A DNA stretch of 64,000 bases from an uncultured Actinomycetes bacterium (GTDB lineage Bacteria > Actinomycetota > UBA4738 > HRBIN12). Made by a program: the position numbers and the translations under genes. Position 1 is the first letter of the stretch. Every line of letters begins with the position of its first letter. Under the pieces are notes generated by a model. The model was not told the DNA's origin. It did no database searches and saw nothing but the letters and a program-made list of their open reading frames with translations. Where the stretch lies: positions 779,812 to 843,811 of the forward strand of contig CAWGTU010000003.1 of NCBI GenBank assembly GCA_963825635.1. Direction: 5' to 3'. Shown one piece after another: positions 1-43,631 of this stretch.

Positions 1-404
1 CCCTCGAGGATCTCGTCGAGTTCCTCGACGCCGAGGTCGGCGAGGGCCAGTGGGCGATGGCGCTCACGGCCGACCACGGCCACCAGTACGACCCGGCGAT
101 CTCCGGAGCGATGCCGATCGGCATCACGGCACTGACGGCGTTCATCGAGGACCGCTTCTCCGATCCCGCCGGACCCAGCGTCGTGCGGCGCGCGCGTCCC
201 ACCCAGATATGGATGGACGAGCAGACCCTCGCCGATGCCGGACACACGCTCGACGAGGTCGCGGCGGCACTCGCATCCGCCACGCGCGAGGAGTTGTCGG
301 GTGGTGCCGAAGTCCCCGGCGACCCCGACGCGCGTGCCTTCTCGGCCGCCTTCCCGACGAGCGACCTCGATGGCCTCGGATGCCTGCCGCCCGATCGATC
401 GTGA
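1..404 (+). CDS. 3' end (partial) of a type I phosphodiesterase/nucleotide pyrophosphatase (NPP, alkaline-phosphatase superfamily) family secreted protein
   Basis: The open frame runs from the window edge. Its C-terminus (WAMALTADHG..., ending ...CLPPDRS) is clearly paralogous to the C-terminus of the 28688..30339 gene (WAMVVTADHAAMPDP..., ending ...CLPEAAR). Family assignment is by that paralogy. Confidence 0.55.
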   Translation, partial: LEDLVEFLDAEVGEGQWAMALTADHGHQYDPAISGAMPIGITALTAFIEDRFSDPAGPSVVRRARPTQIWMDEQTLADAGHTLDEVAAALASATREELSGGAEVPGDPDARAFSAAFPTSDLDGLGCLPPDRS

Positions 405-8082: not shown

Positions 8083-9402
8083 TTACGGCTCTGCCGGCTC
8101 GACGGGCCCCTCCGGCACCTCGGCCCTCGACGGGACATCCTCGAGATGCAGCTCGTCGTCGATCTGGTCGGGTGCGAGCGTGCCGACCGTGCCTCGGCTG
8201 ATCGCGCGCGCATAGAGGAAGAGCGCCGGTAGACGAAGCAGCCCCGAGACGACCAGGGCCGTCGGCACCGAGACCGAGCGGGCGATCAGCCCGATACCCG
8301 GTCCCCCGGCCGCCTGACCGATCGCATCGGACTGGGAGCCGATCGAGTTGATCGTGGCACGGGTCTTGGCGTCCAGGCCCTGATTGATCCACGCCGTGAA
8401 CACGGGCTCCCGCACGCTTCGCAAGGTTCCCACGAGCCAGAACATCGCGAGGGCGAGCCAGAAGCTCGACGCCAACGCGAACACCACCACCGCGACGACC
8501 AACACGACGTCGACGACCGCCAAGACACGGGCAACCGTGCCGTGTCCCTGCAGATGCACCCGTCGCTTCACGATCGCCAGGGCGCCGATGCCGAGCAGCA
8601 GCGCCCCGCCGTCGAGGATGCCGAACCACACCGGCAGCTCGAGCCCTCCCACGGTCGGCAGCCCGATGTCCTCCAGCAAGTGGAGGTCGCTCAGTCGGTC
8701 GAACCCCTCGGTCGACATACCGTGGAGTGCCGCAGTGCCGAGGATCAGCAGCAGCACGTGGTGGGCACGCACCGCGGCCACGCCCTCGCGGACGGTCGTT
8801 GCGAGCGAGGTGTGCAGCCGTTCGCCCTCTCGGCGTTCGGGCTGGAACCCCTCCTCACGCATCGTGATCGCCATGAAGACCCCGAGCGCGATGAACCCGA
8901 GTCCCGAGACCAGGATCGGTGTTCGGAGGCTCGAGAACGACGCGATCGTCACACCCACCGCGATGCCGAGGAGCGAGCCCCACTGCCACCACTGCTCGCT
9001 GCGCAAGTACATCGGCTGTGCCGCCTCTTCACCGATCTCGTCGGTGAGCCACGCGACGTCGGCGCCGCTCTGGAACGTGGCGAACACCCCCCACAGTGCC
9101 TGAGAGAGCACGGCGATCGCGAACGACTCGGCCGCGCCCAACACCAGGAACGCGACCCCGGTACCGAGCAGGCCGATCACGACCGAGAGACGGCGGCTCG
9201 CGGTGTCGGCGACGATCCCGGTCGGCACCTCCAACAGTAGGTACGTGAGCTCGAGCACCGTGCCGAGCAGCAGCAGCTCGAACGGTCCAAGCTGAAGTTC
9301 CACGATCAGGAAGACGCTGAATAACACCGACATCAGGTGGAAGAAGAAGCCCTCACCCGTCGAGTAGACGAGGTAGACGGTCTCGGGTCGCGGCCGACGC
9401 AT
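8083..9402 (-). CDS. MFS transporter
   Basis: 439 aa with about 12 predicted TM segments. MFS-like loop motif after TM2 (GIVADTASRRLSVVIGLLG). Confidence 0.8.
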   Translation of the reverse strand: MRRPRPETVYLVYSTGEGFFFHLMSVLFSVFLIVELQLGPFELLLLGTVLELTYLLLEVPTGIVADTASRRLSVVIGLLGTGVAFLVLGAAESFAIAVLSQALWGVFATFQSGADVAWLTDEIGEEAAQPMYLRSEQWWQWGSLLGIAVGVTIASFSSLRTPILVSGLGFIALGVFMAITMREEGFQPERREGERLHTSLATTVREGVAAVRAHHVLLLILGTAALHGMSTEGFDRLSDLHLLEDIGLPTVGGLELPVWFGILDGGALLLGIGALAIVKRRVHLQGHGTVARVLAVVDVVLVVAVVVFALASSFWLALAMFWLVGTLRSVREPVFTAWINQGLDAKTRATINSIGSQSDAIGQAAGGPGIGLIARSVSVPTALVVSGLLRLPALFLYARAISRGTVGTLAPDQIDDELHLEDVPSRAEVPEGPVEPAEP

Positions 9403-9468
9403 CGCGTGAGGAGCCTACGCTCCCCGGTGGTCTGGCCGGCCATCGTCGACACTCCCGTGTGTGGGAGC

Positions 9469-22971: not shown

Positions 22972-23895
22972 TCAGACGTTCGGCTCCGCCGTTCGAGTCG
23001 TTCGCACGACCGATGCGATCACGGCGCCCACCAGGATCAGCGCACCCCCGGCTGCGACCGTCGCCGTGATCGGCTCGTCGAGGAAGATCGCCGCGAGCAC
23101 GGCGACCGTGAGCGGTTCCATCACGCCGATGATCGCGTTGCGGACGGCACCGACGCGCTGGAGACCTGCGAGCATCGTGGCGAACGCGCCCGCCGACACG
23201 AGCACGATCGCCGCGAGTCGCGCCGGGGTCGCGCCCGCCGGAAGCACGAACGAGCCGAGCACGACCGCGAAGAGGACGTTCGAGGTCGCCGCCCCGGCGC
23301 CCAGCCACCCGGCGGCCGTGACCGGATCCGTGCGGCGAACGTGGCGGTCGGTGCCCACGAGATAGGCGGTGTAGACGATCGACGTCGCAAGCGCGAGCGC
23401 GATGCCGAGCGGCTCGACGTCGGTCTCCCCGCCCCCGCCCAGCACGACGATCGCGCTCCCACCGATCGCGAGCGCGAGGGCGACGAACAACGGTGGAGAC
23501 GGGGCGCGCCGGTCGAGCGCGATCGTCGCCAGCATCACCCAGACCGGATACGTGTAGAAGAGCAATGTGACCGCCGCCGCCGATCCGTGGTTCAAGGCCG
23601 AGAAGTAGAGGGCCGCCTCGGTGCCGTAGCCGAGCGTGCCGGCAAGCACGAGAGCGAGGCGCTCGCCCGGCGCAGGCAGGCCCGGCCGCCGCAGCACCAG
23701 GGCGAGTCCGAGCAGCAGCACCGACTGTCCGCCGAAGCGGATCGCCAGCGTGACGAACGGCGGTCCGCCGGCCTGCACCTTCGAACCGAGGATCACGACC
23801 CCGGCGAAGAGCACCGCCATCGCGACCGACATCGCCGAGCCGATCAGTTCGCCTCGGCGGTCGACCGCACGCCTCGTCGCGGCGACCTCGCTCAT
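22972..23895 (-). CDS. EamA/DMT family transporter
   Basis: About 10 TM segments with two-EamA-repeat topology. Start set at MSEVAATRR (ATG ending 23895) inside a longer Arg/Gly-rich spurious extension. Confidence 0.7.
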   Translation of the reverse strand: MSEVAATRRAVDRRGELIGSAMSVAMAVLFAGVVILGSKVQAGGPPFVTLAIRFGGQSVLLLGLALVLRRPGLPAPGERLALVLAGTLGYGTEAALYFSALNHGSAAAVTLLFYTYPVWVMLATIALDRRAPSPPLFVALALAIGGSAIVVLGGGGETDVEPLGIALALATSIVYTAYLVGTDRHVRRTDPVTAAGWLGAGAATSNVLFAVVLGSFVLPAGATPARLAAIVLVSAGAFATMLAGLQRVGAVRNAIIGVMEPLTVAVLAAIFLDEPITATVAAGGALILVGAVIASVVRTTRTAEPNV

Positions 23896-24752
23896 CCGTC
23901 GCCCTGAAGGAATCTGCTGACACGGTCGACCAGCAACGGGATCGACGTGAGCAGCTCGTCCTCGGATGCCAGCACGATCGCCTCGGCGTGGGGCATCACC
24001 TCTGCCAGGCCCCGGGCCACCGTAGCGGGGTGGATCGAGTCGCCCTCGCGGCCGATCACGAGCGCCGGCGCGCTCAGATCGGCCAGGGCCGAGAACGAGG
24101 GAACGGCGACGTCCCGCACGATCTCCCGGATCGCACGCGCCACGCCGGTCGGGTTCATGTCCTGCCACAAGAGCAGGTCGAACTCACGCAGCCCGGGCTG
24201 CGCCTGGTAGTTCCCGGCGCGTCCCGACTCCCGCAGGATCGCCTCGATCGCCTCGTCGCGCGGCAGCGTCTCGAGGAGCTCTGCGGTGCGCTCGAACAGA
24301 GGCGTCGCTCCGATCGGGCCTTCGAGTGCTGAGGGCAGCAAGAACACCATCCGCTCGAACCGATCGGGCTCTCGCGCGAGCAGGTGCGCGAGTGCCCCGG
24401 CGCCGAGCGACGTGCCCACCGCGCAGGTCGCGTTCGTCTCGCGAGCGACGGCGTCGAGGTCGCGGGCGAAGTCTGCGTATCGATAGGAGCCCGCCTCGGG
24501 TGTGCTCGAGTGCCCATGGCCGCGGAAGCAGAACCGTACCTTCGTTCCGGGAGCCATCGGCGTGAACGCGGCGAGCTCCATGCACGAGTTCGTCAACCCG
24601 TGGGCGAACACCGTGGTGGGCTCGCCCGAACCCTCGATCTCGATGTGGAGCACGGCGTCGCGGGTCCGCAGCTCAGGCACCGATCGGCTCTCGCTCACGC
24701 ATCGGACCCGAGGGTACGATGCGTCTACGATGCACGGCGAAGCAACGGCCAT
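23892..24752 (-). CDS. alpha/beta hydrolase
   Basis: HGLTNS oxyanion region and GTSLGA nucleophile elbow are present. The stop overlaps the EamA start (ATGA). The start is uncertain, between 24698 and 24752. Confidence 0.6.
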   Translation of the reverse strand: MAVASPCIVDASYPRVRCVSESRSVPELRTRDAVLHIEIEGSGEPTTVFAHGLTNSCMELAAFTPMAPGTKVRFCFRGHGHSSTPEAGSYRYADFARDLDAVARETNATCAVGTSLGAGALAHLLAREPDRFERMVFLLPSALEGPIGATPLFERTAELLETLPRDEAIEAILRESGRAGNYQAQPGLREFDLLLWQDMNPTGVARAIREIVRDVAVPSFSALADLSAPALVIGREGDSIHPATVARGLAEVMPHAEAIVLASEDELLTSIPLLVDRVSRFLQGDG

Positions 24753-25029
24753 CGAGATCTCGCGCAGCGACGTCGAGCACGTGCTCTCACGCTTCCGCGT
24801 GCGACTCACCGATGTCGACGGTTCGACGACCGAACACGACGTGACGATGTCGCGGGCCGAATGGGAGCGGTTCGGGACCGGCTACCGGACGCCCGAGGCG
24901 CTGATCGAGGCGTCGTTCCGGTTCCTGCTGGCCCGCGAACCGAAGGAGCAGATCCTCGGCGCGTTCGGCCTCGGGTTGATCCCCCGCTACTTCCCCTCGT
25001 TCGGGCGCGACATCGAACCGCCGGACTGA
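24730..25029 (+). CDS. hypothetical protein (99 aa)
   Basis: ORF from ATG 24730 (MHGEATAIEISRSDVEHV...). No family was recognised. It sits just upstream of the large membrane protein gene on the opposite strand. Confidence 0.3.
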   Translation: MHGEATAIEISRSDVEHVLSRFRVRLTDVDGSTTEHDVTMSRAEWERFGTGYRTPEALIEASFRFLLAREPKEQILGAFGLGLIPRYFPSFGRDIEPPD

Positions 25030-25032
25030 CGC

Positions 25033-28000
25033 TCAGTCGACCTCTGCCGGCACCACGGTCTCGCCGTCGATCTCGATCAGGTCGTCCTGCGGGGCGAACT
25101 GATCGCGGATGCGCCTTGCCCAGGCCGCGACGAGCGCGGTCAGGCCGAGGAACACCACGCCGGAGACGAGCAGGATCGACCGCGTGGTGACCTCGCTGTC
25201 CTCGGTCCAGAGCAGGAAGAGGATCAGCGCCGGCACGATGTACCCGAGGTTGTAGGCGATGTCGAACAACGCGAAGGCCCGGCCTCGGAAGTCGTCGGGC
25301 ATCGTCTGCTGCATGATCGTGTCGGCCGAGATCTTGCCGACGAAGAACGAGAAGAAGCCGATGAACAGCATCGCGGCGAACCCGGCCACCGAGACGAACA
25401 CCCCGCCCACGATCGTGCCGATGCCGAGCAGCACCATCGACATCAGCAACAGGCGCACGGGGGGCACCCGGTCCTTGAACGTCTGGGCCACGACCATGCC
25501 GAGCGCGCCACCGACCAGGCCGCCCATGCCCGAGAGCACCAGCGAGATCGTGTCGGAGTCCCCGCCGGCCACGAGGTTCTTCGCATAGAGACCGAAGACG
25601 AACAACCCGAACCCCCAGAACTGGTAGCGCAACATCTGGAACGACGACAGCCCGAGCGCCGCCGGCGCCCGGCCCGCGACCTCCTTCAGGCCGGCCACGA
25701 TGTTGCGGACCACCTGGGATGCCTCTTGCGTGAACGTCGTCTCGTGCGGGCGGAGCTCGGCGTGCCGCAGCTGCTTCGCCACGAACGCGCCGACCAGCAG
25801 GACGGCGGCGCCGACGACGACGGGCACGAACGGGGGCACGAAGCCGGCGAGCGCGCCCCCGAACACGATGCCGAAGATCTGCGCGAGGGCGCCACCTGCC
25901 TGCGACAGGCCATTGCCTTGCAGCAGGTCCTTCCCCGAGAGCACGTCGGGGACCGCCGCGGACTTCACGGCGAGGGCGATGCGCACGCACGCCTGCACCG
26001 CGAGCAGCCCCACGATCAGCGCCGCGGTCGCGAGGGCGTTGCCCTCGGTCGTGTCGGATCCGAGCGGCACGAGCACCGCGAGCGCCACGATCACGACCAC
26101 GACGGCGGTTGCCACGTCGGCCCACCAGACGACCCGTCGGCGCGGGAAGCGGTCGATGAACACGCCGACGAACGGCGAGATCAGCGTGTAGGGAACGTAG
26201 AGGGCGAGCACGACGGTGAGCAGGTAGTCGGCCGACGGCAGGTTCTGCACGTCGAAGCCTTCCTGTCCGCCGAACGCGAGCGACTTCGCGATCGCGCCCT
26301 GCACGACGCCCTGCCCGGCTTGGGCCAGGTACTGCACGCCCATCAGCACCGAGAAGTCCCGATTCGAGAAGGCAGCGAACATCGCGTTGAAGAAGCCGGC
26401 GAGCGAATCGAGGGGCTTGCGCAGCCACGCGTCGGCCACCCGCAGCGCAGCGCCGATGCCGATCGCGACGGCGACGACCGTCCACCCCTTCGCGACGCTG
26501 AGCGGGCCGCGCCACACCGCGAGCACGGCGATGCCGGCGAGCAGGACGAGCACGACCGACATGCCGGGGATCAGCGCGATCCGATCGACCGTGGTACGGA
26601 TGCCGAGCCAGTTCGACGCGAGCCACCCCGGCACGATCAGGAGCAGGGCGAGCAGGGCGATCACGAGCAGGTTCTGCGGCAGATTCTCGAGCGGGCCAGG
26701 ATGCGCCTCGAACTTGGCGGCTTCCTCGGCGGCCGCGGCCTGGGCGCGCTCGACGACGTCGGCGGGCGGCGCCCAGAGCCCCTCGCCCTCGATCACGTAG
26801 ACGTCGGGTCCGACCTCGACCCCCTGCGACGTGGCCGCCTCGAGGTTCTGCTGCTCGATGTCGGCCGAGCAATCGTCGACGCCGTTGCACAGACCTCCGT
26901 AGTACTGCCCGATCAGGAACACGACCGGCGGCTCGCTGAGCTCCTCGAACCTCGGCTCGAAGTCGTCGGCCAGCTTCTCATCAGGGTCGCAGAGGGCCTT
27001 CTCGCCCCCGAACGCCTCGCACCAATGTGCCGTCGCGGCGTCGGTGTAGCCCTCGCTGCCGACGGTCGAGGTGGTGCGCTCGCCCGCGAGGAAGTTCTCG
27101 AGCGTGCCGAGGTAGGTGACCGAGCGCTCGATCGTCTCCCCCGGCAGTCCCGTGCGGAAGACGTTCGTGTAGGTCTTCGCCCAGCCGTACGCGGTGTTCG
27201 TATCGGTGGCAGGATCGTCGGTGTCGCCGTAGTTCACGACGAGCACGTTCGCCCGCTCGCCGGCCGCATCGACCACCTCGTTGACGGCGGCGAGCGAGGT
27301 GCGCACCTGCTGGTTCGCCCACTGATTCGTCTCACTCACCCAGCGGTTCTCGACGCCGTCGAACAGGACGTACCCCAGCGAGGCGACCACGAGGATCGAG
27401 CCGAGCGCCCCGGCGACCATCGCCGCACCGTGGCGGCCGCGGAGCAGCCACCGGATCGCGACGAACGCGCCGAGACCGACGAGCGCCATCGGGGCAGCGC
27501 TCGCGTTCATGAAGCGGTAGTACGGGAGGGCCGCACCCGTGAACACGGACGCCGCGCCGGCGAACGCCACCAGCCACCAGATCGACACCTGGTCTTCGGT
27601 ACGAGCCGGCTCCCGGGTGCGGCGCGAGAGCAGGATCGTCGAGACGATCGCGATCAGGATGAAAGGCACGATCACGATCGGCTGCAGCGACGTCACCCAT
27701 TCGACGAGTCGATCGGTGAAGAACTCCGCGCTGTAGGGCGGCGGCAAGGCGGCTTCCGCGAGGCTCGCCGGCTTCCCCCAGATGCCGACGACCCACATCG
27801 CGAGACCGGCGATCATGCCGAAACCGACGGACATCAGCATCGGGGCGTCGGCCCGCAGCGCGGCCCCGAAGGAGAACCGACTCGTCAGGAAGTGGAAGCC
27901 GAACACCGCCATCAGCACCGCGCCGAAGATCACGCACGTCGTCGGATGCGTGAACGCCGCGGCGATGCCGATCAGGAACAGCGCCGTCCTCGCGCCCCAC

Positions 28001-28563
28001 GACGTGCGGGCCTCGTGGACGAACGGGATCATCAGCGCCAGCAGGAACAGCACCGTGATGTTGTCGAGGTAGCCCACGTACGGCGTCGTCAGGAAGAGGG
28101 CCACCGTGGCGAGCAGCGTGGTCAGCACCACGAGCGGATCACGGCGGCTCCGGAACAGGGCCGCCCCGAGGGCGAGCCCGGTGAGGATGGGGATGCCGAT
28201 CATCAGGTACGCGCTGAACGTGTATCGGTCGATGCCGACGACCTGTTGCAGCAACGCCCCGGCGAGCGGCACGGTCACGCGGTAGCCGCCGGCGAACAGT
28301 CCGTTCGGGCCCCACTCCTCGGCCACGCGCACCGGGTCGGCCTCGAGGATCACCTGGGCACGCCACGTGTACCAGGCGGGGTCACGCGTCGGCGCGGACA
28401 GGCTCGGGTCGGCGAGGAACTTCCAACCGAGCACCAACAGCATCAGCAGGGCGAACCCGCCGACCATCCACCACGACCCGAGCCAGCGCGGGCCCGAGCC
28501 TGGGCTCGAGTCGGGCAAGGGCGGCTCGCCCGCCGGTGCCTTCACGGTGTCGGTCGCAGCCAT
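25033..28563 (-). CDS. large fusion membrane protein: N-terminal polytopic domain + Cys-containing extracytoplasmic domain + C-terminal MFS transporter domain
   Basis: 1176 aa. Residues ~1-400 contain about 10 TM helices. Residues ~400-640 are a soluble segment with paired cysteines (HWCEAFGGEKALC, LCNGVDDC). Residues ~650-1170 form a 12-14 TM MFS-like domain with a DRFPRRR motif-A-like loop. Domain assignment is from sequence features only. Confidence 0.65.
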   Translation of the reverse strand: MAATDTVKAPAGEPPLPDSSPGSGPRWLGSWWMVGGFALLMLLVLGWKFLADPSLSAPTRDPAWYTWRAQVILEADPVRVAEEWGPNGLFAGGYRVTVPLAGALLQQVVGIDRYTFSAYLMIGIPILTGLALGAALFRSRRDPLVVLTTLLATVALFLTTPYVGYLDNITVLFLLALMIPFVHEARTSWGARTALFLIGIAAAFTHPTTCVIFGAVLMAVFGFHFLTSRFSFGAALRADAPMLMSVGFGMIAGLAMWVVGIWGKPASLAEAALPPPYSAEFFTDRLVEWVTSLQPIVIVPFILIAIVSTILLSRRTREPARTEDQVSIWWLVAFAGAASVFTGAALPYYRFMNASAAPMALVGLGAFVAIRWLLRGRHGAAMVAGALGSILVVASLGYVLFDGVENRWVSETNQWANQQVRTSLAAVNEVVDAAGERANVLVVNYGDTDDPATDTNTAYGWAKTYTNVFRTGLPGETIERSVTYLGTLENFLAGERTTSTVGSEGYTDAATAHWCEAFGGEKALCDPDEKLADDFEPRFEELSEPPVVFLIGQYYGGLCNGVDDCSADIEQQNLEAATSQGVEVGPDVYVIEGEGLWAPPADVVERAQAAAAEEAAKFEAHPGPLENLPQNLLVIALLALLLIVPGWLASNWLGIRTTVDRIALIPGMSVVLVLLAGIAVLAVWRGPLSVAKGWTVVAVAIGIGAALRVADAWLRKPLDSLAGFFNAMFAAFSNRDFSVLMGVQYLAQAGQGVVQGAIAKSLAFGGQEGFDVQNLPSADYLLTVVLALYVPYTLISPFVGVFIDRFPRRRVVWWADVATAVVVVIVALAVLVPLGSDTTEGNALATAALIVGLLAVQACVRIALAVKSAAVPDVLSGKDLLQGNGLSQAGGALAQIFGIVFGGALAGFVPPFVPVVVGAAVLLVGAFVAKQLRHAELRPHETTFTQEASQVVRNIVAGLKEVAGRAPAALGLSSFQMLRYQFWGFGLFVFGLYAKNLVAGGDSDTISLVLSGMGGLVGGALGMVVAQTFKDRVPPVRLLLMSMVLLGIGTIVGGVFVSVAGFAAMLFIGFFSFFVGKISADTIMQQTMPDDFRGRAFALFDIAYNLGYIVPALILFLLWTEDSEVTTRSILLVSGVVFLGLTALVAAWARRIRDQFAPQDDLIEIDGETVVPAEVD

Positions 28564-28687
28564 CGAGCAGATCCCTTCAGATCGTGGGGGAAAGAGTCAT
28601 TCGGGCAGCCCACGACCACGCCGGGGCCATGGGGACCGACACAGGATAGACGAGCCGCACCCCCCTGCCTCGGAAGCGCCGGCCGCC

Positions 28688-30339
28688 TCACCGAGCGGCC
28701 TCGGGCAGGCATGGAAGATCCTGCATCAGCGCCGACGGGAACGCCGCCGTCATGACCGCATCGTCTTCCTGGCCCGGGTTCGGCACCACACCGCCCCCGG
28801 CCGTCTGGGCCTGCGTGAAGGTCATCATGAACCGCGCCACGTCATCGACCGTGTGACCGTTGGCCTCGAGCTCCTCCAGGTTCAGGAACGCCTGCGTGGG
28901 CTGCATCAGCTCGACGATCACCGGTCCGCCGGGGGTCCCGAACCGGTCGTTGATCATCTCCTGCATCGGTCCGGTGGAGATCTGGTACCCCCCGCTCACT
29001 GTGGGGTCGGGCATCGCCGCGTGATCGGCGGTGACCACCATCGCCCACTCGCCCTTGCCCACCTCGCGGTCGAGGAACGTGACGAGATCCTTCATCGCCC
29101 GGTCCTGCGCCGCGACGGCGTCGAGCATCTCGGGGGAGTTCATCGACCACACGTGGCTGACGTAGTCGATCGCCTTGAAGTTCAGGAAAAGCAGGTCGGG
29201 CACGTCGTCGGCCCCGAAGCCCTCACGCCGGATCACCTCTTCGACCACACGCTGCTGGTACGGGGTGCGGGCGGGGGTGTCGAAGCCCTGCAGCAGCTCG
29301 TCGATGTCGTTGTCGCGCCACTTGCCGTCGAGCTGTCCGTCCGCCTGATCGACGGCCTCCTTGTCCTGCTCGAACCCTCCGACGTCGTTCGCGTACCCGG
29401 CCAGCTCATAGTAGGCGGCCTCGCGCTCGGGCAGGTTCCACTCGAACCCTTCGTCGGTGAGCGTCTCCCCGCCGATCACCGACCGGGTGAGCGCGATGTC
29501 GCGGTCACCGCCCGAGAAGAACGAGCCGTGACCCAACATGCCGAAGTGGATGTCCACGGTACCGACGATGCCGGCGAGCGGCTCGTTGCCCAGCGCACGG
29601 TCGTACACGTCGGCGAACGTCGGCTCGATGAAGAACGTCGGGCCCTGGTTCCACGGACCGGTGATCCGACCGGCCACGAGCATGTTGTGCCCGATGATGC
29701 CGTGGTGGCGCGGATAGGCCCCCGTGCCGATCGTCGCGTGGATCTGGGCGGTGCTCGTCGGCGACGATCCGACGGTCGCGTCGGTGTACCAGGTGCCCCT
29801 CGGGATCAGCGACCTCGTGTACGGCCACGCGCCGGGATGCTCCTCGAGCACGTTGATGCCCGCGGCGTCCCACACCATCGTGACCAACAGCTTCGGGATC
29901 TCGCGCTCGGCCTCGGGGAGCAGCGCCTCGGTCATCGGCTGACCGTCGGGAGCCCGGAAGCCATCGAACTTCATGAGCTGCGCCGACGTGGGCGCGATGC
30001 CCGCCACCGTCACGGGACGGCCCACCTCACCCTGCGCCGTCACGAAGCCGGGGCCGTACCAGAACATCGGCACCGTCTGGATGTAGTCCCACGGCCCGAC
30101 GTGCGGCAGACCGGAACCGACGAAGTTCGGCTCCTTCGGCACGAAGGAGAGTTGCGCCCCCCGGTCGGGTCGCCACCCCCTCCAGATGCGCAGCAGCTCA
30201 TCGTGGGGCAGGGAACACGCGGCGGAGACGAGATCTCGCTGACCCGACTGGGCCGCCGCATGGATCGGGGGGCGCACCAGCACGAGTCCGACGAGCACGA
30301 TCGCGAGCGAGAGCGGAACGAGGGATCGGCGGGCCGGCA
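28688..30339 (-). CDS. type I phosphodiesterase/nucleotide pyrophosphatase (NPP, alkaline-phosphatase superfamily), secreted
   Basis: N-terminal signal/TM MPARRSLVPLSLAIVLVGLVLV. The NPP signature TAQIHATIGTGAYPRHHGIIGHNM matches the PF01663 core (SIVTGLYPESHGII). Start at the ATG ending 30339. Confidence 0.75.
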
Positions 30340-30452
30340 TGTCGGCATAGGGAACACGACCCCGGCGGCGCGCGACAACCCGGGAGCGTTGAGAGTCTGT
30401 GACGGCCCGGGAACGATGCGGAGACCCTGGTCGCAGGCGGTAGCGTGGGGGT

Positions 30453-31805
30453 GTGCGGATCGGCCGTCGCCTCTCGACCCTGCTGCTCGTGCTGGCGCTC
30501 GTGGGAGCCCCGGCGGTGGTCCTTCGCATCTTCTGTGTCGGGAGCAGCTGCGACGCGGGCGAGGCGCGAGCGCAGGCCACGGTTCCGTTCTGCCCCCTCC
30601 CAGAGCGACTCCGCCACGAGATCGCGGCCGGCTTCCGCGAGGGACGCTCCCCCGATGTGATGGCGGCGACCGCGGGGCTCGACACCGTCTCGACGCAGGT
30701 CCGGCGGGGCACTCGAGTGCCCTGGCCCGGTACGGAGGATCGCGATGGTGTTCCGGGCCTGCCCGACACCCGGGTGCCGATCGTGTTCTTCGGTTCGGGC
30801 GTGCGCCCGAGAGCGTTGCCGACGGGGACCGCGCTCGACGCGATCGCGCCGACGCTGGAGTCGATCACGGGGTTCCGGCGCGCCCATCCCGAGGTCCGGA
30901 CCGGCGAGGCGGTCGAGGAGGCCACGATCGTGGGACACGACGCGCCCTCGCTCGTCGTGATGATCGCCTGGAAGGGCGTCGGCACTCCCGACCTCGAGCG
31001 GAGCCCGACGGCCTGGCCCTTCCTGCGGCGAGCGATGCGCTCCGGCGCGGGGACCCTCGCGGGCATCACCGGCTCCGTGCCGCTCGACCCCGCCGCCACG
31101 CTCACCACGATCGGCACCGGAGGGCGTCCGTCGAGCCACGGCATCACGGGGACCTCGGTGCGTCAGGACGACGGCGAGGTCGCGGTCGCCTGGTCGGCAC
31201 CAGGAGCGGGCTCGGTGATCGCCACGCTCGCCGACGACCTGGACCACGACTCGGGCGGACGGGCCAGGGTGGCCGCGATCGTCGCGGACCCGGCCGATCG
31301 GGGCATCGTTGGCAACGGGTGGTACCTCGACGCGGTCGACGACGACACGACGATCCGCGCTGACGACCCGGCGCGCTCGGCGACGAAGGCCGCCGCGATC
31401 GTCGACTCCGAGGACCTCGGGGGCGACGAGGTCACCGATGTGCTGGGTGTCGTGCTCGACGGCGAGGTCGGGCGGCTCGACGAAGCGACGTCCGCGATCG
31501 TGTCCTCGATCCGGGATCTCGTGCCGACCACGACGTTCGTCGTGACCGCCACCGGAAGCCTCGCCGGCGGAGGCCGGGGCGAGGACGCTCTCGGCATCGC
31601 CGCGGACGTCGACTCGACCCTCGGCGCCCCGGTCGTCGCCCAGGTCGCCCCGGACGGCCTCTTCCTCGATCGAGACGTGCTCGTGGACCGCTCCCTCACG
31701 GCCCAGCAGGTCGCGGACGCGATGCGAGGCGCCGACGCGGGCGGCCGACCGCTCTTCGACGACGTGTACCCGTCGTTCGCCGTCGCCTTCTCGAGGTACT
31801 GCTGA
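30453..31805 (+). CDS. NPP-family (alkaline-phosphatase superfamily) paralogue, secreted
   Basis: Signal peptide MRIGRRLSTLLLVLALVGAPAVV. A degenerate NPP core TLTTIGTGGRPSSHGITG is present. Transcribed divergently from the 28688..30339 paralogue. Confidence 0.6.
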   Translation: MRIGRRLSTLLLVLALVGAPAVVLRIFCVGSSCDAGEARAQATVPFCPLPERLRHEIAAGFREGRSPDVMAATAGLDTVSTQVRRGTRVPWPGTEDRDGVPGLPDTRVPIVFFGSGVRPRALPTGTALDAIAPTLESITGFRRAHPEVRTGEAVEEATIVGHDAPSLVVMIAWKGVGTPDLERSPTAWPFLRRAMRSGAGTLAGITGSVPLDPAATLTTIGTGGRPSSHGITGTSVRQDDGEVAVAWSAPGAGSVIATLADDLDHDSGGRARVAAIVADPADRGIVGNGWYLDAVDDDTTIRADDPARSATKAAAIVDSEDLGGDEVTDVLGVVLDGEVGRLDEATSAIVSSIRDLVPTTTFVVTATGSLAGGGRGEDALGIAADVDSTLGAPVVAQVAPDGLFLDRDVLVDRSLTAQQVADAMRGADAGGRPLFDDVYPSFAVAFSRYC

Positions 31806-32827
31806 TGGCCGTCGAGCTCGAGCCTCGCGCACCGTCGTCCGATCCGCAGACCCGAGACCGCTCTCGGCCCCCGGTCGCGATCGTGATCGTGGGGCTCCTC
31901 GCCGTCGCCGTGCTCGTGCGCGTCGTCGATCCCTCGAGCCTGCCGTGGCTGCGGAACCTACTGATCGTCTTCGGCTCGCTGCTGGTCGAGGCGATGCCGT
32001 TCATCCTGCTCGGCGCAAGCGTCTCGGCCGCGATCGAGGTGCTCGTGCCTGCCTCGGCGTTCGCGCGCATCGCATTGCTCCCACGCGGCCTGCAGATGCC
32101 GGCCGCTGCCGCGGCCGGCGTGGCGTTCCCTGTCTGCGAGTGCGGCTCGGTGCCCGTGGCCCGGCGGCTCGCCGCGAAAGGCCTCGCACCGAGCGCGGCG
32201 ATCACCTTCATGTTGGCGGCCCCGGTCGTGAACCCGGTCGTCGTGGCGTCCACGTTCGTGGCCTATCGCGGTCGCGACACCCTCTGGATCATGGTGCTCG
32301 GGCGTCTGGCCCTCGGCTTCATCGTGGCGATGACGGTCGGCTGGGTCATGGGGCGGGTGCGCTCGGGCGAGCTGCTGCGGGCGCGGGGGGACCAGGTCGA
32401 GGCCCACGAGGTCGACGAACAGGAGGCGCGGTGGCGCCGCTTCTTCGGGCACCTCACCGGCGACGTGGTGTTCATGGCGCGGTTCTTGATCATGGGCGCC
32501 GCGCTCGCGGCCGCGATCCAGACGTTCGTGCCGCAGTCGATCGTGAACAGCGTGGCGAGTCTGCCCATCCTGAGCCTGATCGCGATGATGGCGCTCGCGT
32601 TCGTGATGTCGCTGTGCTCGGAGTCCGACGCCTTCGTCGCTGCCTCGTTCACGGCGTTCGGCCCCGCGTCCCAGCTCGCGTTCCTCGTCTTCGGCCCGAT
32701 GGTCGACCTGAAGCTCGCGGCGCTGTACGTGGGCACATACCAGCGAGGGTTCCTGCGCACGGTCGTGATCGCGGTCGGCGCCACCACCCTCGTGGCCACA
32801 CTGTGGATCCAGGTGATCTGGGGATGA
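31805..32827 (+). CDS. UPF0718/YraQ-family permease (COG0701)
   Basis: Polytopic membrane protein with the conserved CECGSVP motif. Typically partnered with a TIGR03943 protein. Confidence 0.75.
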   Translation: MAVELEPRAPSSDPQTRDRSRPPVAIVIVGLLAVAVLVRVVDPSSLPWLRNLLIVFGSLLVEAMPFILLGASVSAAIEVLVPASAFARIALLPRGLQMPAAAAAGVAFPVCECGSVPVARRLAAKGLAPSAAITFMLAAPVVNPVVVASTFVAYRGRDTLWIMVLGRLALGFIVAMTVGWVMGRVRSGELLRARGDQVEAHEVDEQEARWRRFFGHLTGDVVFMARFLIMGAALAAAIQTFVPQSIVNSVASLPILSLIAMMALAFVMSLCSESDAFVAASFTAFGPASQLAFLVFGPMVDLKLAALYVGTYQRGFLRTVVIAVGATTLVATLWIQVIWG

Positions 32828-33546
32828 CGAGCATGCGGTCGCGCGAGGACGAACGCCTCCGGTTCAGCGGGCCGCGCGTGGCAGCCGGACTCGCGATCGG
32901 GGCCTGGGCGGCGCTCTTCTGGTTCCTGCTGCTCGCGGGACGCACCTCGCTGTACCTGTCCACACGCACCGCATGGCTCGTGCCGCTCGGCGCCACGCTG
33001 GCCACGATCGCGGCCGTGGGACGGCTCGCGTCCGCCAGGGTGCGCTCCCCGGAGCCGCTCGGCAACCGGGAGACCTGGATGTTCGGCGTGATCGTGCTCC
33101 CGGTCGTCCTGCTCCTCACGCTGCCGCCGGCGACGCTCGACTCGTATGCGGTGAACCGGCGATCGAACTCGACGGCGATCGGATCGAGCGCGCGGATCGT
33201 GAGCGGCCCGATCGACCTCGTCGACGTCGCGGCTGCCAGGGCGGTCGTCGATGCGGAGGCGGTGCTCAAGGCCCGAGCCGGCGAGCGGGTCACGATCGAG
33301 GGGTTCGTGACCGAGGAGCCCGGCGAGGCCGACCGCTTCCAGCTGACGCGGTTCGTGATCACGTGCTGCGTGGCCGACGCCACGATCAGCTACGTCACCG
33401 TCGTCGACGCGCCCCCCGGCAGCTTCGAGACCGACCAGTGGGTCCGTGTCGTGGGTCCGATCTACCCGCTCGGCAGCGACATCCTGGTACAGGCGGAGTC
33501 GGTCGAGCCGATCGACCCGCCGGACGAGCCCTACCTCACGCCCTGA
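32824..33546 (+). CDS. TIGR03943/DUF1980 family protein (partner of YraQ permease)
   Basis: N-terminal 2-TM region, then a soluble domain with the CCV motif (FVITCCVADA). ATG 32824 overlaps the permease stop (ATGA). Confidence 0.7.
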   Translation: MTSMRSREDERLRFSGPRVAAGLAIGAWAALFWFLLLAGRTSLYLSTRTAWLVPLGATLATIAAVGRLASARVRSPEPLGNRETWMFGVIVLPVVLLLTLPPATLDSYAVNRRSNSTAIGSSARIVSGPIDLVDVAAARAVVDAEAVLKARAGERVTIEGFVTEEPGEADRFQLTRFVITCCVADATISYVTVVDAPPGSFETDQWVRVVGPIYPLGSDILVQAESVEPIDPPDEPYLTP

Positions 33547-33549
33547 GGC

Positions 33550-33993
33550 TCACGCGCACGCGCGACAGGTGCCGATCAGGTCGAGGCGGTGGCGCACCTT
33601 CGCGAACCCGCTCCGCTTGGCCAGCCGGTCGACGGCGCGATCCATCGTCGTCTCGAGATCGGGCGGGATCGTGACGTCCTCCACCCTGCCGCAGTTCGAG
33701 CAGATCAGGTGGTGATGATGCTCGGTGAGATCCTCCGCCAGCTCGTACCGCGCGAACTCCCCCTCGGCGATCACCCGGCGCACCACCCCTGCGTGCTCCA
33801 GCACGGCGAGGTTGCGGTAGACGGAACTCTGCGGGCCCGTTCGTGACCGCACGATCTCGGCCGTGGACAGCGGGGTCCGCGCCCGCTCGAGGGCCGCGAC
33901 CAACGCTTCCCGCTGCGGCGTGTATCGCTGACCGACGCCGCGCAACCGCTCCGCGACGGTCGCATGCAGGTCTCGCGCCACGAGCCGCATCAT
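33550..33993 (-). CDS. zur: Fur family transcriptional regulator (Zur-like by context)
   Basis: Fur DNA-binding helix RYTPQREALVAAL, metal site HHHHLICSNCG...CRAC. It is the last gene of a znuA-znuC-znuB-zur operon. Confidence 0.8.
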   Translation of the reverse strand: MMRLVARDLHATVAERLRGVGQRYTPQREALVAALERARTPLSTAEIVRSRTGPQSSVYRNLAVLEHAGVVRRVIAEGEFARYELAEDLTEHHHHLICSNCGRVEDVTIPPDLETTMDRAVDRLAKRSGFAKVRHRLDLIGTCRACA

Positions 33994-34848
33994 ACGTCGG
34001 CTCCAGGCGCGCTCCGGGCCCCGGCGAGGGCACGGGAGGCGACGGCGACGGCGACGAACACGCCCGCCGTGACCAGCACGATCGTGCCCCCCGTGGCGAG
34101 CCCACCGGGGAACACCCTCGACAACGCGAGCCCCGCGACCGATGCTCCGACGCCGATCACGACCGAGATCGCGAGAGCCCCCGAGAACGAGCGCGCGATC
34201 ATCTGCGCGCACGCCACGGGCAACACCATCATCGCCGCGACGAGGAGGATGCCGACGATCTGCATCGCCGCGACCACGGCGACCGCGGTCAGCACGGCGA
34301 GCAAGGCATTCAGGAGGCCGACGGGGAGCCCCGCGACCCGCGACCACTCCTCGTCGGTGACCACCGAGAACATCGCGCGACGCAGCGCGAACACGGCGAG
34401 CACGATGCCGAGACCGAGCAGCACGATCGCCCACACCTCGCTGCCGCTCACCGTGAGCGGTCCGCCGAACAGATACGTGAGCACGTTCGAGGAGAGCCCG
34501 TCCCCTGCCGAGATCAGCACCACACCGAGCGCGATCCCCGAGTAGAAGAGGATCGCGAGCGCGACGTCGCCCGACGTGCGTCGCCGGGCTCGGAACCACT
34601 CGATGCCGAGCGACCCCCCGACCGCGAACGCGAGCGCCGTCCACAGCGGCGCCCATGCCGCAAGCAGCCCCGCACCCACACCGGCGAACGCGACGTGCCC
34701 GATGCCGTCGCCGATCAGGGAGAGCCGCTTCTGCACGAGGAACACGCCGATCGTCGGCGCGAAGGCCCCTACCGCGATGCACGCGATCAGCGCGCGTTGC
34801 ATGAAGGCGAGATCGAACGGGTACGGGAGCGCGATCTCGGCGATCACG
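33990..34848 (-). CDS. znuB: metal (Zn/Mn) ABC transporter permease
   Basis: ZnuB-like polytopic permease. The GTG start at 34848 overlaps the znuC stop (GTGA), and its stop overlaps the zur start (ATGA). Confidence 0.75.
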
Positions 34849-35644
34849 AGAGCTGCTCCAGCCAGATCGGCAGGTCCTCGGCGTGCACGCCGAGGCTCCC
34901 AACCCCTCGCGCGGCCAGGGCGGCCGGCTCGCCGTCGAACAGGACCGTGCGTTTGAGCACGATCACGCGGTCGACATCGTCGGCGACCGCCGAGAGCTCG
35001 TGCGAGACGAGCAAGACGCCGGCGCCGTGATCCCGGATCAGGTGCACGAGCGAGTCGCGGAAGAGTCGCTGCGACGCCGCGTCGACGCCCGCGATCGGTT
35101 CGTCGAGCACCAAGAGCGACGGCTCGCTCGCGAACGCTCTGGCGATGAACGCGCGCTGCTGCTGACCGCCGGAGAGCTCGTTCACCGGACTGGCGGCGAG
35201 GTCGGCGAGTCCGACCGACGCGATCGCGTGTTCCACCTGACGCCGATCGGCTCGAGACATCGGCATCCACCAACGTCCATCGGTCAACCGGCCCGCCGAC
35301 ACGATCTCCCGCACGGTGGCGGGGAGCTCCGAGCTGAGACTGGGTCGTTGCGGCACGTATCCGAGCCGCCCGCGCCGACGCACGGCCCCCGGCGGATGAC
35401 CGAAGAGGCGAGCCTCGCCGCCGTCGGGTTCGAGCGAGCCGAGCAGCAGCCGCAACAGCGTGGACTTGCCCGAACCGTTCGGCCCGACGAGCGCGACGAA
35501 CTCGCCAGCCCGAACCTCGAGGTCGACGTGCTCCAGCACCGGCTCGCGGCCGTACGCGAACGTCAGCCCTCTGGCCGCCAGGAGCTCCTGACGCGCGTCG
35601 CCGTCGCCGGTCACGGGCGAGACGCTAGGTGCAGTCGAGGCCAT
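34844..35644 (-). CDS. znuC: metal ABC transporter ATP-binding protein
   Basis: Walker A GPNGSGKST, ABC signature LSGGQQQR and Walker B LLVLDEP are present. Confidence 0.85.
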   Translation of the reverse strand: MASTAPSVSPVTGDGDARQELLAARGLTFAYGREPVLEHVDLEVRAGEFVALVGPNGSGKSTLLRLLLGSLEPDGGEARLFGHPPGAVRRRGRLGYVPQRPSLSSELPATVREIVSAGRLTDGRWWMPMSRADRRQVEHAIASVGLADLAASPVNELSGGQQQRAFIARAFASEPSLLVLDEPIAGVDAASQRLFRDSLVHLIRDHGAGVLLVSHELSAVADDVDRVIVLKRTVLFDGEPAALAARGVGSLGVHAEDLPIWLEQLS

Positions 35645-36554
35645 CTCGCAACGTCTCCAGGTTGCGTCGCATCACGGACAGGTAGTCGTCGCCGGCCGCT
35701 TCCTGCTCCTCGGTGAGGCCTTCCAGCGGACTCAGGACCGCGGTGCGGATCCCGGCTTCGGCGGCCAGCGTCTCGGCGACGTCGGGAGGCACCAGGTCCT
35801 CGGTGAAGATCGTGGTGACCCCTTCTGCGCTCACCTCGGCGGCGAGCTCAGCGATCCGATCGGGGTCGGGCTCGGACTCGGGTGCGAGCCCCGAGATCGC
35901 GCGCTGCTCGAGATCGTATGCAGCGGCCAGGTAGCCGAACGCCGCATGGCTCGTGATCATCACGCGCGTGCCGCACCGGGCGAGCCCCTCACGGAACTCG
36001 GCGTCGAGCTGCGAGAGCTCGACGCCGAAGTCCTCGGCGTCCACGCCGAAGCGATCGCCGTCCGCGCCACCTCGACCCTCGCCCAGCCCAGCGGCGATGC
36101 GGACGACGATGTCGGAGTAGAGCGCGGGGTCCAGCCACACGTGCGGGTCGGCCGCCCCCTCCTCGGCGTGTTCGCCGCCGGGCGGAACGTCGCGAGGCTC
36201 GATCCCATCGAGCGCATCGACGACGACGCCGGTCGCCTCGGCCTCGACGGCATCCTCGACGGCCGGCTGGAATCCGCCGCCCAGGTACACGACGAGATCC
36301 GCCTCGGCGATCGCCTGGAGATCGTCCGGGGTGAGCTCGAGGTCGTGAGGCTCGACACCGGGGGGGGTGAGGTTCGTGACGGTTACCTGATCGCCGCCGA
36401 TGCGCGCGGCTGCGAAGGCCAAGGGGTAGAAGCTCGCCACGACCTCGACCGCGCCGTCGGAGCCATCGCCCACCTCAGCCCCGCCGGCACACCCCACCGC
36501 GCCGAGCGACAGGGCCGCGAGAAGAACGAGACTGAGAATCGCTCTCATAAGCAT
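35625..36554 (-). CDS. znuA: metal ABC transporter substrate-binding lipoprotein
   Basis: Lipobox LSLGAVGC and a ZnuA/TroA-like fold with a His/acidic-rich loop (DVPPGGEHAEEGAADPHVW). GGGAGG RBS precedes ATG 36554. The real start lies inside a spurious 830-aa ORF. Confidence 0.8.
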   Translation of the reverse strand: MLMRAILSLVLLAALSLGAVGCAGGAEVGDGSDGAVEVVASFYPLAFAAARIGGDQVTVTNLTPPGVEPHDLELTPDDLQAIAEADLVVYLGGGFQPAVEDAVEAEATGVVVDALDGIEPRDVPPGGEHAEEGAADPHVWLDPALYSDIVVRIAAGLGEGRGGADGDRFGVDAEDFGVELSQLDAEFREGLARCGTRVMITSHAAFGYLAAAYDLEQRAISGLAPESEPDPDRIAELAAEVSAEGVTTIFTEDLVPPDVAETLAAEAGIRTAVLSPLEGLTEEQEAAGDDYLSVMRRNLETLRDGLDCT

Positions 36555-42167: not shown

Positions 42168-42208
42168 GGACCGGAGCGCCCGGCCACGTGCGCTAGGGTT
42201 CTGCGTCG

Positions 42209-43624
42209 ATGCTCTTCCCCACGATCGACTTCGCGGTCTTCTTCGCCCTGGTGTTCCTGGGGCACTGGCTGCTGAACCCGAAACCGTTGCCCTGGAAGCT
42301 GTTCATGATCGGGGCGAGCTACGTCTTCTACGCCTGGTGGGACGTGCACTTCATCTGGCTGCTCGCCGGCGTGTCGGCGATCTCACAGCTGGGCGCGATC
42401 GCCGTGGCCCGCCAACCCGACGAGCGACGCAAGCGCGTCGCGATGGTCGCCGGCGTCACGCTCACCCTGCTGCCGCTGCTCTACTTCAAGTACTACGGAT
42501 TCTTCTCGCTGAACCTGACGAACGCGGCCGCAGAGCTCGGGCTCGAGAACCTCGGCCTGCCCCTCGTGCAGCTCATCTTGCCGGTCGGGATCTCCTTCTT
42601 CACGTTCATGGCGATCAGCTACATCGTCGATGTCTACCGCGGGCACACACGCGTCGCGAGCTGGATCGACGCGTTCCTGTACCTGTCGTTCTTCCCGCAC
42701 CTGGTGGCGGGGCCGATCGTGCGACCCGACGAGCTGATCCCCCAGCTCGACGTGCGGCGCGACCCCCGCCACATCGACGTCGCGGGGGCCTCGTGGCTGA
42801 TCGTCGGCGGACTCTTCAAGAAGGTCGTCGTCTCGAGCTTCCTCGCGACCACGATGGTCGACCCGGTGTTCGGCGATCCCGCGAGCCACTCGGCGATCGA
42901 CGCGCTCTTCGGCATCCTGGCGTACGCGATCGTGATCTATGCCGACTTCAGCGGGTACACCGACATCGCGATCGGCGTGGCGAAGCTGCTCGGGTTCCAG
43001 TTCCCGCAGAACTTCGATCGCCCGTACTCCGCGCGATCGCTGCAGGACTTCTGGCGCCGCTGGCACATCACCCTGTCGCGCTGGCTGCGCGACTACCTCT
43101 ACATCCCGCTCGGCGGGTCGAAGAAGGGAGAGATCCGCACCTACGTGAACATCGTGGTCACGATGGTGCTTGGCGGCCTGTGGCACGGCGCCGCCTGGAC
43201 GTTCGTCTTCTGGGGGCTCTACCACGGCATCGGCCAGGCGATCGGCGCATGGAAGCGAGCCCACCTGCCCGCGCGGACCGAGACCCCGCTGCTGCTGTGG
43301 GGCCAGCGGCTGTCGACGTTCGCGCTCGTCTGCGTGGGATGGGTCTTCTTCCGCGCCGACTCGATGGCCACGGCGTTCTCGCTGCTCGGCCGGCTCGTCA
43401 CGGGATGGACGACCCCGACCGAGCTCGTGACCCCCCTGGTGATCGGCACGATCGCGCTGATGCTGGCGTTGCAGTACGCACCGAGGGAGCCGGGCATGCT
43501 GCTGCAGGAGCGCATCTCACGGTGGCGCCCGGTGCCCATGGGGCTCGCCGGAGCCGCGGCCTTGTTCGTGATCACCACGCTCGGGCCGCAGGGCGTGGCA
43601 CCCTTCATCTACTTCCAGTTCTGA
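42209..43624 (+). CDS. MBOAT family O-acyltransferase (AlgI/DltB/PatA-like)
   Basis: 471 aa multi-TM protein with the conserved MBOAT His (DFWRRWHITLSRWLRDYLYIPLGG). Confidence 0.85.
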   Translation: MLFPTIDFAVFFALVFLGHWLLNPKPLPWKLFMIGASYVFYAWWDVHFIWLLAGVSAISQLGAIAVARQPDERRKRVAMVAGVTLTLLPLLYFKYYGFFSLNLTNAAAELGLENLGLPLVQLILPVGISFFTFMAISYIVDVYRGHTRVASWIDAFLYLSFFPHLVAGPIVRPDELIPQLDVRRDPRHIDVAGASWLIVGGLFKKVVVSSFLATTMVDPVFGDPASHSAIDALFGILAYAIVIYADFSGYTDIAIGVAKLLGFQFPQNFDRPYSARSLQDFWRRWHITLSRWLRDYLYIPLGGSKKGEIRTYVNIVVTMVLGGLWHGAAWTFVFWGLYHGIGQAIGAWKRAHLPARTETPLLLWGQRLSTFALVCVGWVFFRADSMATAFSLLGRLVTGWTTPTELVTPLVIGTIALMLALQYAPREPGMLLQERISRWRPVPMGLAGAAALFVITTLGPQGVAPFIYFQF

Positions 43625-43631
43625 GGACCAG

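Follow-up and report, generated by a model that had tools for sequence, protein, structure and literature searches.

A stretch of 64,000 nucleotides (the window; G+C = 70%) from an uncultured Actinomycetes bacterium (GTDB lineage Actinomycetota; UBA4738; HRBIN12; contig CAWGTU010000003.1, positions 779,812 to 843,811) contains an open reading frame (ORF; 25033..28563, minus strand) for a protein of 1176 residues, in which a domain of predicted GT-C glycosyltransferase fold is joined to a transporter of the major facilitator superfamily (MFS). The fusion was previously unannotated, and its company of secreted PafA/NPP-type phosphoesterases in uncultured soil Actinomycetota points to an uncharacterised cell-envelope glycosylation module. 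The reading favoured here, which is held to be somewhat probable, is that the locus, which is conserved among uncultured soil Actinomycetota, encodes a module for modifying glycoconjugates outside the cytoplasm, in which the MFS half would translocate a lipid-linked substrate of the fused GT-C half and a neighbouring phosphoesterase of the NPP type would act on a phosphate ester of the same pathway. The ORF with its complete C-terminal MFS domain had been reported in a first-pass annotation made from the sequence alone; it was confirmed and found to be widely conserved. The envelope function proposed there was retained as a sensible reading.

The N-terminal half (residues 1-722; 26398..28563, minus strand) is, by its modelled fold, a GT-C domain lying outside GT66 and every sequence-recognisable family. 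No match to it was found in Pfam, NCBIfam or PDB sequences, whether searched as a single sequence or, against PDB, as a 53-sequence profile. A permissive per-member Pfam scan (E up to 10, 53 members) returned sporadic sub-threshold matches only (DUF6541 in 5/53, PTPS_related in 2, YfhO in 1). Searching 1.84 billion cluster representatives with phmmer yielded just 297 relatives, of two kinds: fusions of ~1120-1210 residues and standalone proteins of ~650-740 residues at 27-37% identity. None has been given a name other than 'hypothetical', and nearly all come from uncultured Actinomycetota. The initiating M1 and the N-terminal region of the fusion ORF are kept in full-length homologues.

Residues 1-722 were modelled with AlphaFold2 from a 53-sequence alignment, giving a predicted local distance difference test score (pLDDT) of 92.3 and a predicted template modelling score (pTM) of 0.92; the full-length fusion was modelled at pLDDT 79.8 and pTM 0.75. 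The GT-C fold was recovered on the former model by two independent methods. The fold-match figures were 18.7 for ArnT, 18.6 for AglB, 17.5 for AftA and 17.3 for PglB, with lower matches to ALG12, Pmt4, Pmt2, ALG9, AftD, PIG-M, DPY19, AftB, ALG3, PimE, ALG6 and EmbA; the non-catalytic glycosylphosphatidylinositol-transamidase subunits GAB1 and PIG-U were also matched. In the model, 11 transmembrane (TM) helices are followed by a soluble alpha/beta segment of ~220 residues (407-627) and then by three further TM helices (TM12-14). The N-terminal domain had been described as having ~10 TM helices and an extracytoplasmic segment of ~240 residues; the placement of the segment outside stood, and the helix count and length were revised to these values.

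Helix boundaries in the model, together with short Arg/Lys-rich loops, suggest an N-in topology. GT-C enzymes carry a catalytic acid in the first external loop. With the predicted topology D61 would lie in that loop, just after TM1, and D167 in the second external loop, at the outer end of TM3/TM4. Modelled D61 is 10 residues past TM1 (31-51), where the first loop helix starts, and is the candidate catalytic-type Asp. D61 (in PTRDPAWYTWR) and D167 (in GYLDN) are invariant in family alignments of 53 and 36 sequences, and the residues invariant family-wide also include W67, P77, R95, W262, G263, G365, G486, P645 and G646. The soluble segment is acidic (12 K+R vs 40 D+E) and contains Cys515/525 and Cys559/565, C559 being at least 90% conserved and the other three present in the family consensus. 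Its composition, acidic and Cys-rich, and the GT-C topology argue for an extracytoplasmic position. These are the two Cys pairs that had been listed as likely disulfides; the pairs are present, and disulfide bonding between them is plausible. The TM helices at 628-721 would return the chain to the cytoplasm, so that the MFS half would start N-in, as MFS proteins do.

The MFS half (residues ~730-1155; 25099..26376, minus strand) gave the sole Pfam match on the fusion, to MFS_1 over residues 763-1110 (71 bits vs a cutoff of 33). It has a 12-TM fold, with motif A (GVFIDRFPRRR, residues 800-810) between TM2 and TM3. The NCBIfam matches, to TIGR00900, LplT-Aas models and Mef, were all of MFS type and below threshold.

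More than 500 homologues of the fusion were found; the best 120 listed are 58-100% identical and all carry PF07690. In GTDB genomes 367 relatives were present, and genome neighbourhoods were counted in the best 80 of these, 65 loci having enough flank for counts of NPP genes. The 80 loci are all from metagenome-assembled genomes of uncultured soil organisms, nearly all labelled Actinomycetota. Databases name the fusion merely 'MFS transporter' or 'hypothetical protein'. The first-pass annotation did not recognise the architecture, and would have been contradicted by an N-terminal domain from a well-characterised family routinely fused to MFS. This applies by half only: GT-C is indeed well characterised, but the searchable literature yielded no description of a GT-C-MFS fusion or of this gene cluster.

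In a sister lineage the GT-C protein stands alone (e.g. P0154, P0298, P0310) and the MFS is a separate gene. The order in these split clusters is ArsP-DUF1980-NPP-MFS-NPP-GT-C, preceded by a divergent DUF1980-ArsP-NPP2-like group. The separate MFS proteins are 38-43% identical to fusion residues 732-1151, the separate GT-C 31% identical to residues 9-717, the NPP proteins 33-34% identical to the NPP protein encoded next to the fusion gene (NPP1), and the split-cluster counterpart of its catalytically dead paralogue (NPP2) 45% identical to NPP2. A metagenome scan seeded on the standalone GT-C family (17-sequence subset) gave 47 loci; in 13 of them the MFS orthologue is encoded separately, upstream, and in 7 it is fused in frame after the GT-C. 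The fused and the neighbouring split forms of the same MFS/GT-C pair constitute a Rosetta-stone link. GT-C enzymes work on the outside of the membrane, with polyprenyl-phosphate carriers as the source of the sugars they transfer. The donors of GT-C enzymes being lipid-linked and the same two proteins being neighbours in sister lineages, the MFS was assigned a substrate of the fused GT-C as its probable cargo. The ArsP_1/DUF1980 pair is duplicated in the split clusters (L087-L093), one copy being co-directional with NPP-MFS-NPP-GT-C and the second following the pseudo-NPP gene.

The split clusters are often followed by genes for Wzx-like, Wzy_C, sulfotransferase and sulfatase proteins. One standalone GT-C member is found beside a PF04185 phosphoesterase, an epimerase/dehydratase and a GT2 gene; another lies between a sulfotransferase and a Wzx-like gene, with an NPP1-like gene ~4.6 kb upstream. 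In one split cluster (L089, 12034-15453) the gene directly after the standalone GT-C encodes a 1139-residue protein joining Wzy_C (O-antigen ligase/polymerase-like) to Polysacc_synt (Wzx-like), with sulfotransferase and sulfatase genes nearby; a fusion of an enzyme to a flippase thus exists in this clade, which, like the neighbours of the standalone GT-C genes, speaks for the favoured module.

The neighbours also bear on a role in handling of the carrier lipid. Here an oligosaccharyltransferase- or ligase-like GT-C would use a glycan on undecaprenyl (or decaprenyl) diphosphate, flipped by a Wzx-type protein, NPP1 would cleave the polyprenyl diphosphate set free, or a different pyrophosphate or phosphodiester, and the MFS would bring polyprenyl phosphate back to the inner leaflet. 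In structure the oligosaccharyltransferases STT3, PglB and AglB come closest, Wzx-like and Wzy_C genes adjoin the standalone GT-C, and NPP is a pyrophosphatase/phosphodiesterase family. The oligosaccharyltransferase hallmark WWDXG is absent, however, no WWD being found anywhere in the fusion protein, and no Wzx gene was seen near the fused version in the annotated surroundings of orthologues. Nor would a housekeeping pyrophosphatase be expected in 2-4 tandem copies, and NPP1 looks like a cleaved, secreted protein and not a membrane enzyme. Such a role was considered quite unlikely.

NPP1 (28688..30340, minus strand; 550 residues) matches Pfam Phosphodiest at 82 bits (cutoff 23) and PafA in PDB (5tj3) at E 3e-17. 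Alignment to PafA gave T197 as the nucleophile and D158, D392, H396, D439, H440 and H80 as metal ligands. All seven residues are invariant in 68 copies, and NPP1 is predicted to be an active secreted phosphoesterase of the Zn type. Its N-terminus consists of a single hydrophobic signal segment followed by an Ala-rich stretch, and reads as that of a cleaved secreted protein, not of a membrane transferase. Against the PafA equivalog NF042991 it scored 94 bits (cutoff 650), which makes it PafA-like and no PafA orthologue. NPP1 and the fusion gene share a strand, with 124 bp between the 3' end of NPP1 and the start of the fusion gene downstream; this arrangement and the signal peptide had been described correctly, with the start given as 30339, one base off.

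NPP2 (30453..31805, plus strand) is transcribed away from NPP1 and heads a putative NPP2-ArsP-DUF1980 operon. It matches Phosphodiest weakly and is 28% identical to NPP1. Of 38 orthologues, all have Pro at the nucleophile position and 35 have Lys/Arg in place of the first metal Asp; judged from these substitutions, NPP2 is a conserved pseudoenzyme, and the earlier description of a diverged, divergently transcribed paralogue with a degenerate active site, followed by a YraQ-type permease, was borne out. In both paralogues a segment of the PafA C-terminal type precedes the rest of the catalytic core: chain residues 435-533 of PafA, with the last His metal ligand, align to residues 43-140 of NPP1 and 99-156 of NPP2. 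This order suggests that the two are circularly permuted relative to PafA/NPP. A third NPP1-like paralogue is cut by the window start (3' end, 3..404, plus strand, frame-3 translation). The first-pass annotation had placed an NPP-family 3' end here, in agreement with the NCBIfam PafA match (E 4e-5); the fragment is ~41% identical to the C-terminus of NPP1 orthologues.

The class of NPP1 bears on the case for a lipoteichoic acid-like or phospho-headgroup polymer synthesis, which had been proposed for the locus by analogy to LtaS, EptA and MprF. An MFS would flip a glycolipid anchor as LtaA does, the NPP would act as LtaS or EptA, and the GT-C would glycosylate the polymer as YfhO does. The set of an MFS, an alkaline-phosphatase-superfamily enzyme with a Thr nucleophile and a GT-C mirrors LtaA, LtaS and YfhO, and LtaA is within the top five MFS fold matches, but no better than unrelated MFS transporters. 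NPP1 belongs with Pfam Phosphodiest and PafA-like proteins, not with the Sulfatase (PF00884) family, and has a signal peptide only, in place of the N-terminal multi-TM domain of LtaS/EptA. PafA-type enzymes are hydrolases. With a soluble Phosphodiest protein and a GT-C domain, which implies glycosyl transfer from a lipid-linked sugar, the phospho-headgroup logic was abandoned; it is the least supported alternative and highly improbable.

An NPP1-like gene ends <600 bp upstream of the fusion gene in 46/65 genome loci, sometimes as 2-4 tandem copies. In the metagenome set it is directly upstream of the GT-C in 22/26 loci and somewhere in the locus in 24/26. This adjacency marks a conserved neighbourhood and not a coincidence. 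Linkage of NPP to the fusion in relatives, on which the first-pass annotation had staked its module, held across lineages, the NPP genes being syntenic with the GT-C or fusion down to ~30% identity.

Downstream of NPP2 are an ArsP_1 permease of the COG0701/YraQ type (31805..32827, plus strand; PF03773, E 9e-51) and a DUF1980/TIGR03943 permease subunit (32824..33546, plus strand; 105 bits vs a cutoff of 88.8), the latter missed in the first-pass annotation. The NPP2 stop overlaps the ArsP start at 31805, and ArsP and DUF1980 share an ATGA overlap. In NCBIfam, ArsP weakly resembles the SO_0444 Cu/Zn efflux family, and the pair might export metal for the secreted Zn enzymes. Nothing relevant on DUF1980 was found in the literature. 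Beyond the DUF1980 subunit are zur and znuBCA (33550..36554, minus strand).

Zinc-responsive control had been suggested from the proximity of these genes. The actinobacterial Zur-box consensus TGAAAATNATTTTCA, allowing up to 3 mismatches, had no match anywhere in the window. The GC-adapted palindrome TGAGA-N5-TCTCA occurs only as TGAGAATCGCTCTCA, a perfect copy at 36533-36547 that overlaps the znuA start codon; TGAGAATCGCTCTCA is the only AT-enriched 20-mer in 22-38 kb, has no second copy in the window, and may be a GC-adapted Zur operator. No Zur-box-like palindrome was found near the promoters of NPP1, NPP2 or the fusion gene. Footprinting of the NPP1/NPP2 divergent region over 31 loci gave the conserved blocks CCACGCTACC, GGTTGTCG and GTGTTCCCTAT, which look like promoter elements and not like Zur or clear PHO boxes. 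In about a quarter of genomes, moreover, the NPP block is missing and the fusion gene stands right next to znu. Zinc-responsive control is therefore not supported, though a divergent Zur operator might still provide it. A scan of 24600..30600 for promoters and terminators turned up no sigma-70 consensus, and no terminator separating NPP1 from the fusion gene; the two genes may form an operon.

The metal and phosphorus genes allow the locus to be explained as a phosphorus-scavenging or metal island. The NPPs would be secreted organophosphate hydrolases, ArsP/DUF1980 would serve their metallation or zinc homeostasis beside zur-znu, the MFS would move a small solute or metal, and the GT-C-MFS would be linked by position or co-regulation alone. 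The PafA-like class and tandem expansion of the NPP genes fit this, as do ferroportin being the top MFS fold match and the weak likeness of ArsP to a Cu/Zn efflux family. So does the group of about a quarter of fusion loci (~17/65) with no NPP, ArsP or DUF1980 within 8 kb, since there the fusion lies beside znuABC (adjoining in 3/4 examined). On the other side, the NPP-MFS-NPP-GT-C order persists at ~30% identity in split lineages away from znu, no Zur box was found, and the physical fusion of MFS and GT-C argues for a common substrate. The island was judged unlikely.

The glycoconjugate-modification module remains the preferred reading. GT-C systems depend on a separate translocator, whose type varies (GtrA, SMR or MATE; PMC11127046). 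In the mechanism proposed here, the MFS half would move a lipid-linked donor, or a lipid acceptor or the spent carrier, across the membrane, and the fused GT-C half would transfer the glycosyl unit to an extracytoplasmic acceptor. NPP1 would process a phosphate ester of the same pathway, be it substrate, product or carrier. The non-catalytic NPP2 would be made together with the ArsP/DUF1980 pair, which may supply metal to the exo-enzymes or otherwise serve them. The folds, the conserved residues, the fused and split forms and the gene neighbourhood were shown; flippase activity of the MFS, a lipid-linked donor, the NPP substrate and the operon structure are deduced from them. A stronger form of the proposal, in which the MFS is a dedicated polyprenyl-phosphate-glycan or -sugar flippase hard-wired to the GT-C and the NPP an obligatory extracytoplasmic phosphoester step, the two together making a new type of envelope glycosylation pathway, is possible but doubtful.

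Several observations weigh against the module. No gene for a polyprenyl-phosphate-sugar synthase (GT2/UbiA-type) was found in Pfam scans of 20 window ORFs outside the cluster, and none was annotated within +/-10 kb around orthologues. The MFS fold matches are generic, with ferroportin, not a lipid flippase, at the top by a small margin. The split clusters often have a Wzx/MATE-like gene, and in the fused lineage an EamA/DMT gene is retained two positions downstream; the donor may in truth be flipped by one of these proteins, which would leave the MFS with another role. The assignment of D61 as a candidate catalytic residue comes from its position and conservation. The fusion loci without NPP genes count here as well, and every source organism is uncultured.

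Downstream of the fusion gene are an alpha/beta hydrolase gene (23892..24680, minus strand; Pfam matches) and the EamA/DMT transporter gene (22972..23895, minus strand; assigned from annotated orthologous genes), which are translationally coupled through an ATGA overlap. Most of the best 80 loci, and most NPP-less ones among them, preserve the succession fusion, alpha/beta hydrolase, EamA, AlaX-like. The undecaprenyl-phosphate-Ara4N flippase subunits ArnE/ArnF are EamA-type, and by analogy this EamA protein, instead of the MFS, could be the donor flippase. Between the fusion and hydrolase genes is a small antisense ORF (24502-25029, plus strand; 105-175 residues) with coding-like G+C at third codon positions, 40-92% identity across many loci and no family match. 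An MBOAT gene and, after it, a DUF459/SGNH (GDSL) gene occupy 42197-44726, a pairing typical of extracytoplasmic glycan O-acylation; in another locus (L040) an MBOAT gene is also found upstream of the fusion gene. At 8083-11028, a few kb from the third NPP copy, an MFS gene and the beginning of a Ppx/GppA exopolyphosphatase gene overlap, which may point to a phosphate-metabolism theme. This MFS gene (8083..9414) was compared with the fused MFS as a possible paralogue and was rejected as unrelated.

Compared with the GT-C_A enzymes STT3/PglB/AglB (GT66), ArnT (GT83), AftA (GT85) and PMT (GT39), the N-terminal half shares the GT-C fold but is only 7-15% identical, without a relation to any Pfam or PDB family at the level of hidden Markov models. 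Its soluble domain is inserted between TM11 and TM12 and not C-terminal, and an MFS is attached. Lacking WWDXG and any PDB or Pfam sequence match, it falls outside GT66. With the three-component glycosylation systems (GtrA/B/V; ArnC/ArnEF/ArnT; CsbB/GtcA/YfhO; PPPRS/MATE/GT136; PMC11127046) the locus shares the pairing of a GT-C with a dedicated membrane translocator, and the standalone member adjoining an epimerase and a GT2 adds to the likeness. It differs in that the translocator would be a covalently fused MFS (or, as the alternative candidate, the downstream EamA), in that no lipid-sugar synthase is in cis in the window, and in its constant companions, secreted phosphoesterases, which are absent from those systems. 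NPP1 has the Thr nucleophile and six metal ligands of the PafA/NPP branch but is apparently permuted, falls far short of the PafA cutoff and has a dead paralogue. LplT-Aas and MprF offer an analogy only, in that a translocator and the enzyme acting on the lipid it moves form one protein: the MFS half is sub-threshold to the LplT-Aas models, and the enzyme here would be an outward-facing GT-C, whereas theirs is a cytoplasmic acyltransferase or aminoacyl-phosphatidylglycerol synthase. The likeness to LtaA/LtaS is that of an MFS with an extracytoplasmic alkaline-phosphatase-superfamily enzyme; without Sulfatase and membrane domains NPP1 is outside the LtaS/EptA group.

GT-C enzymes build or decorate major envelope polymers: they take part in arabinogalactan and lipoarabinomannan synthesis, in the modification of lipid A and in the glycosylation of teichoic acids and proteins. 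Of the transporters that supply the lipid-linked donors little is established, and most have been assigned from gene context. Both GT-C enzymes as such and extracytoplasmic glycosylation by several components are already well known; what is new here is a sequence-orphan GT-C family, its fusion to a new type of translocator and its unprecedented phosphoesterase partners. The natural GT-C-MFS fusion, found also in split form, indicates by the Rosetta-stone argument that a GT-C can be served by an MFS, and both translocation and transfer could be assayed on this one polypeptide. It defines a GT-C family undetected by sequence methods and tied to PafA-like phosphoesterases, a pseudo-phosphoesterase and an ArsP/DUF1980 pair, in abundant uncultured soil Actinomycetota whose cell envelopes are essentially unknown. 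If the MFS is indeed a dedicated flippase, this would be the first natural flippase-GT-C fusion and would give a handle on the long-unidentified flippases of lipid-linked monosaccharides.

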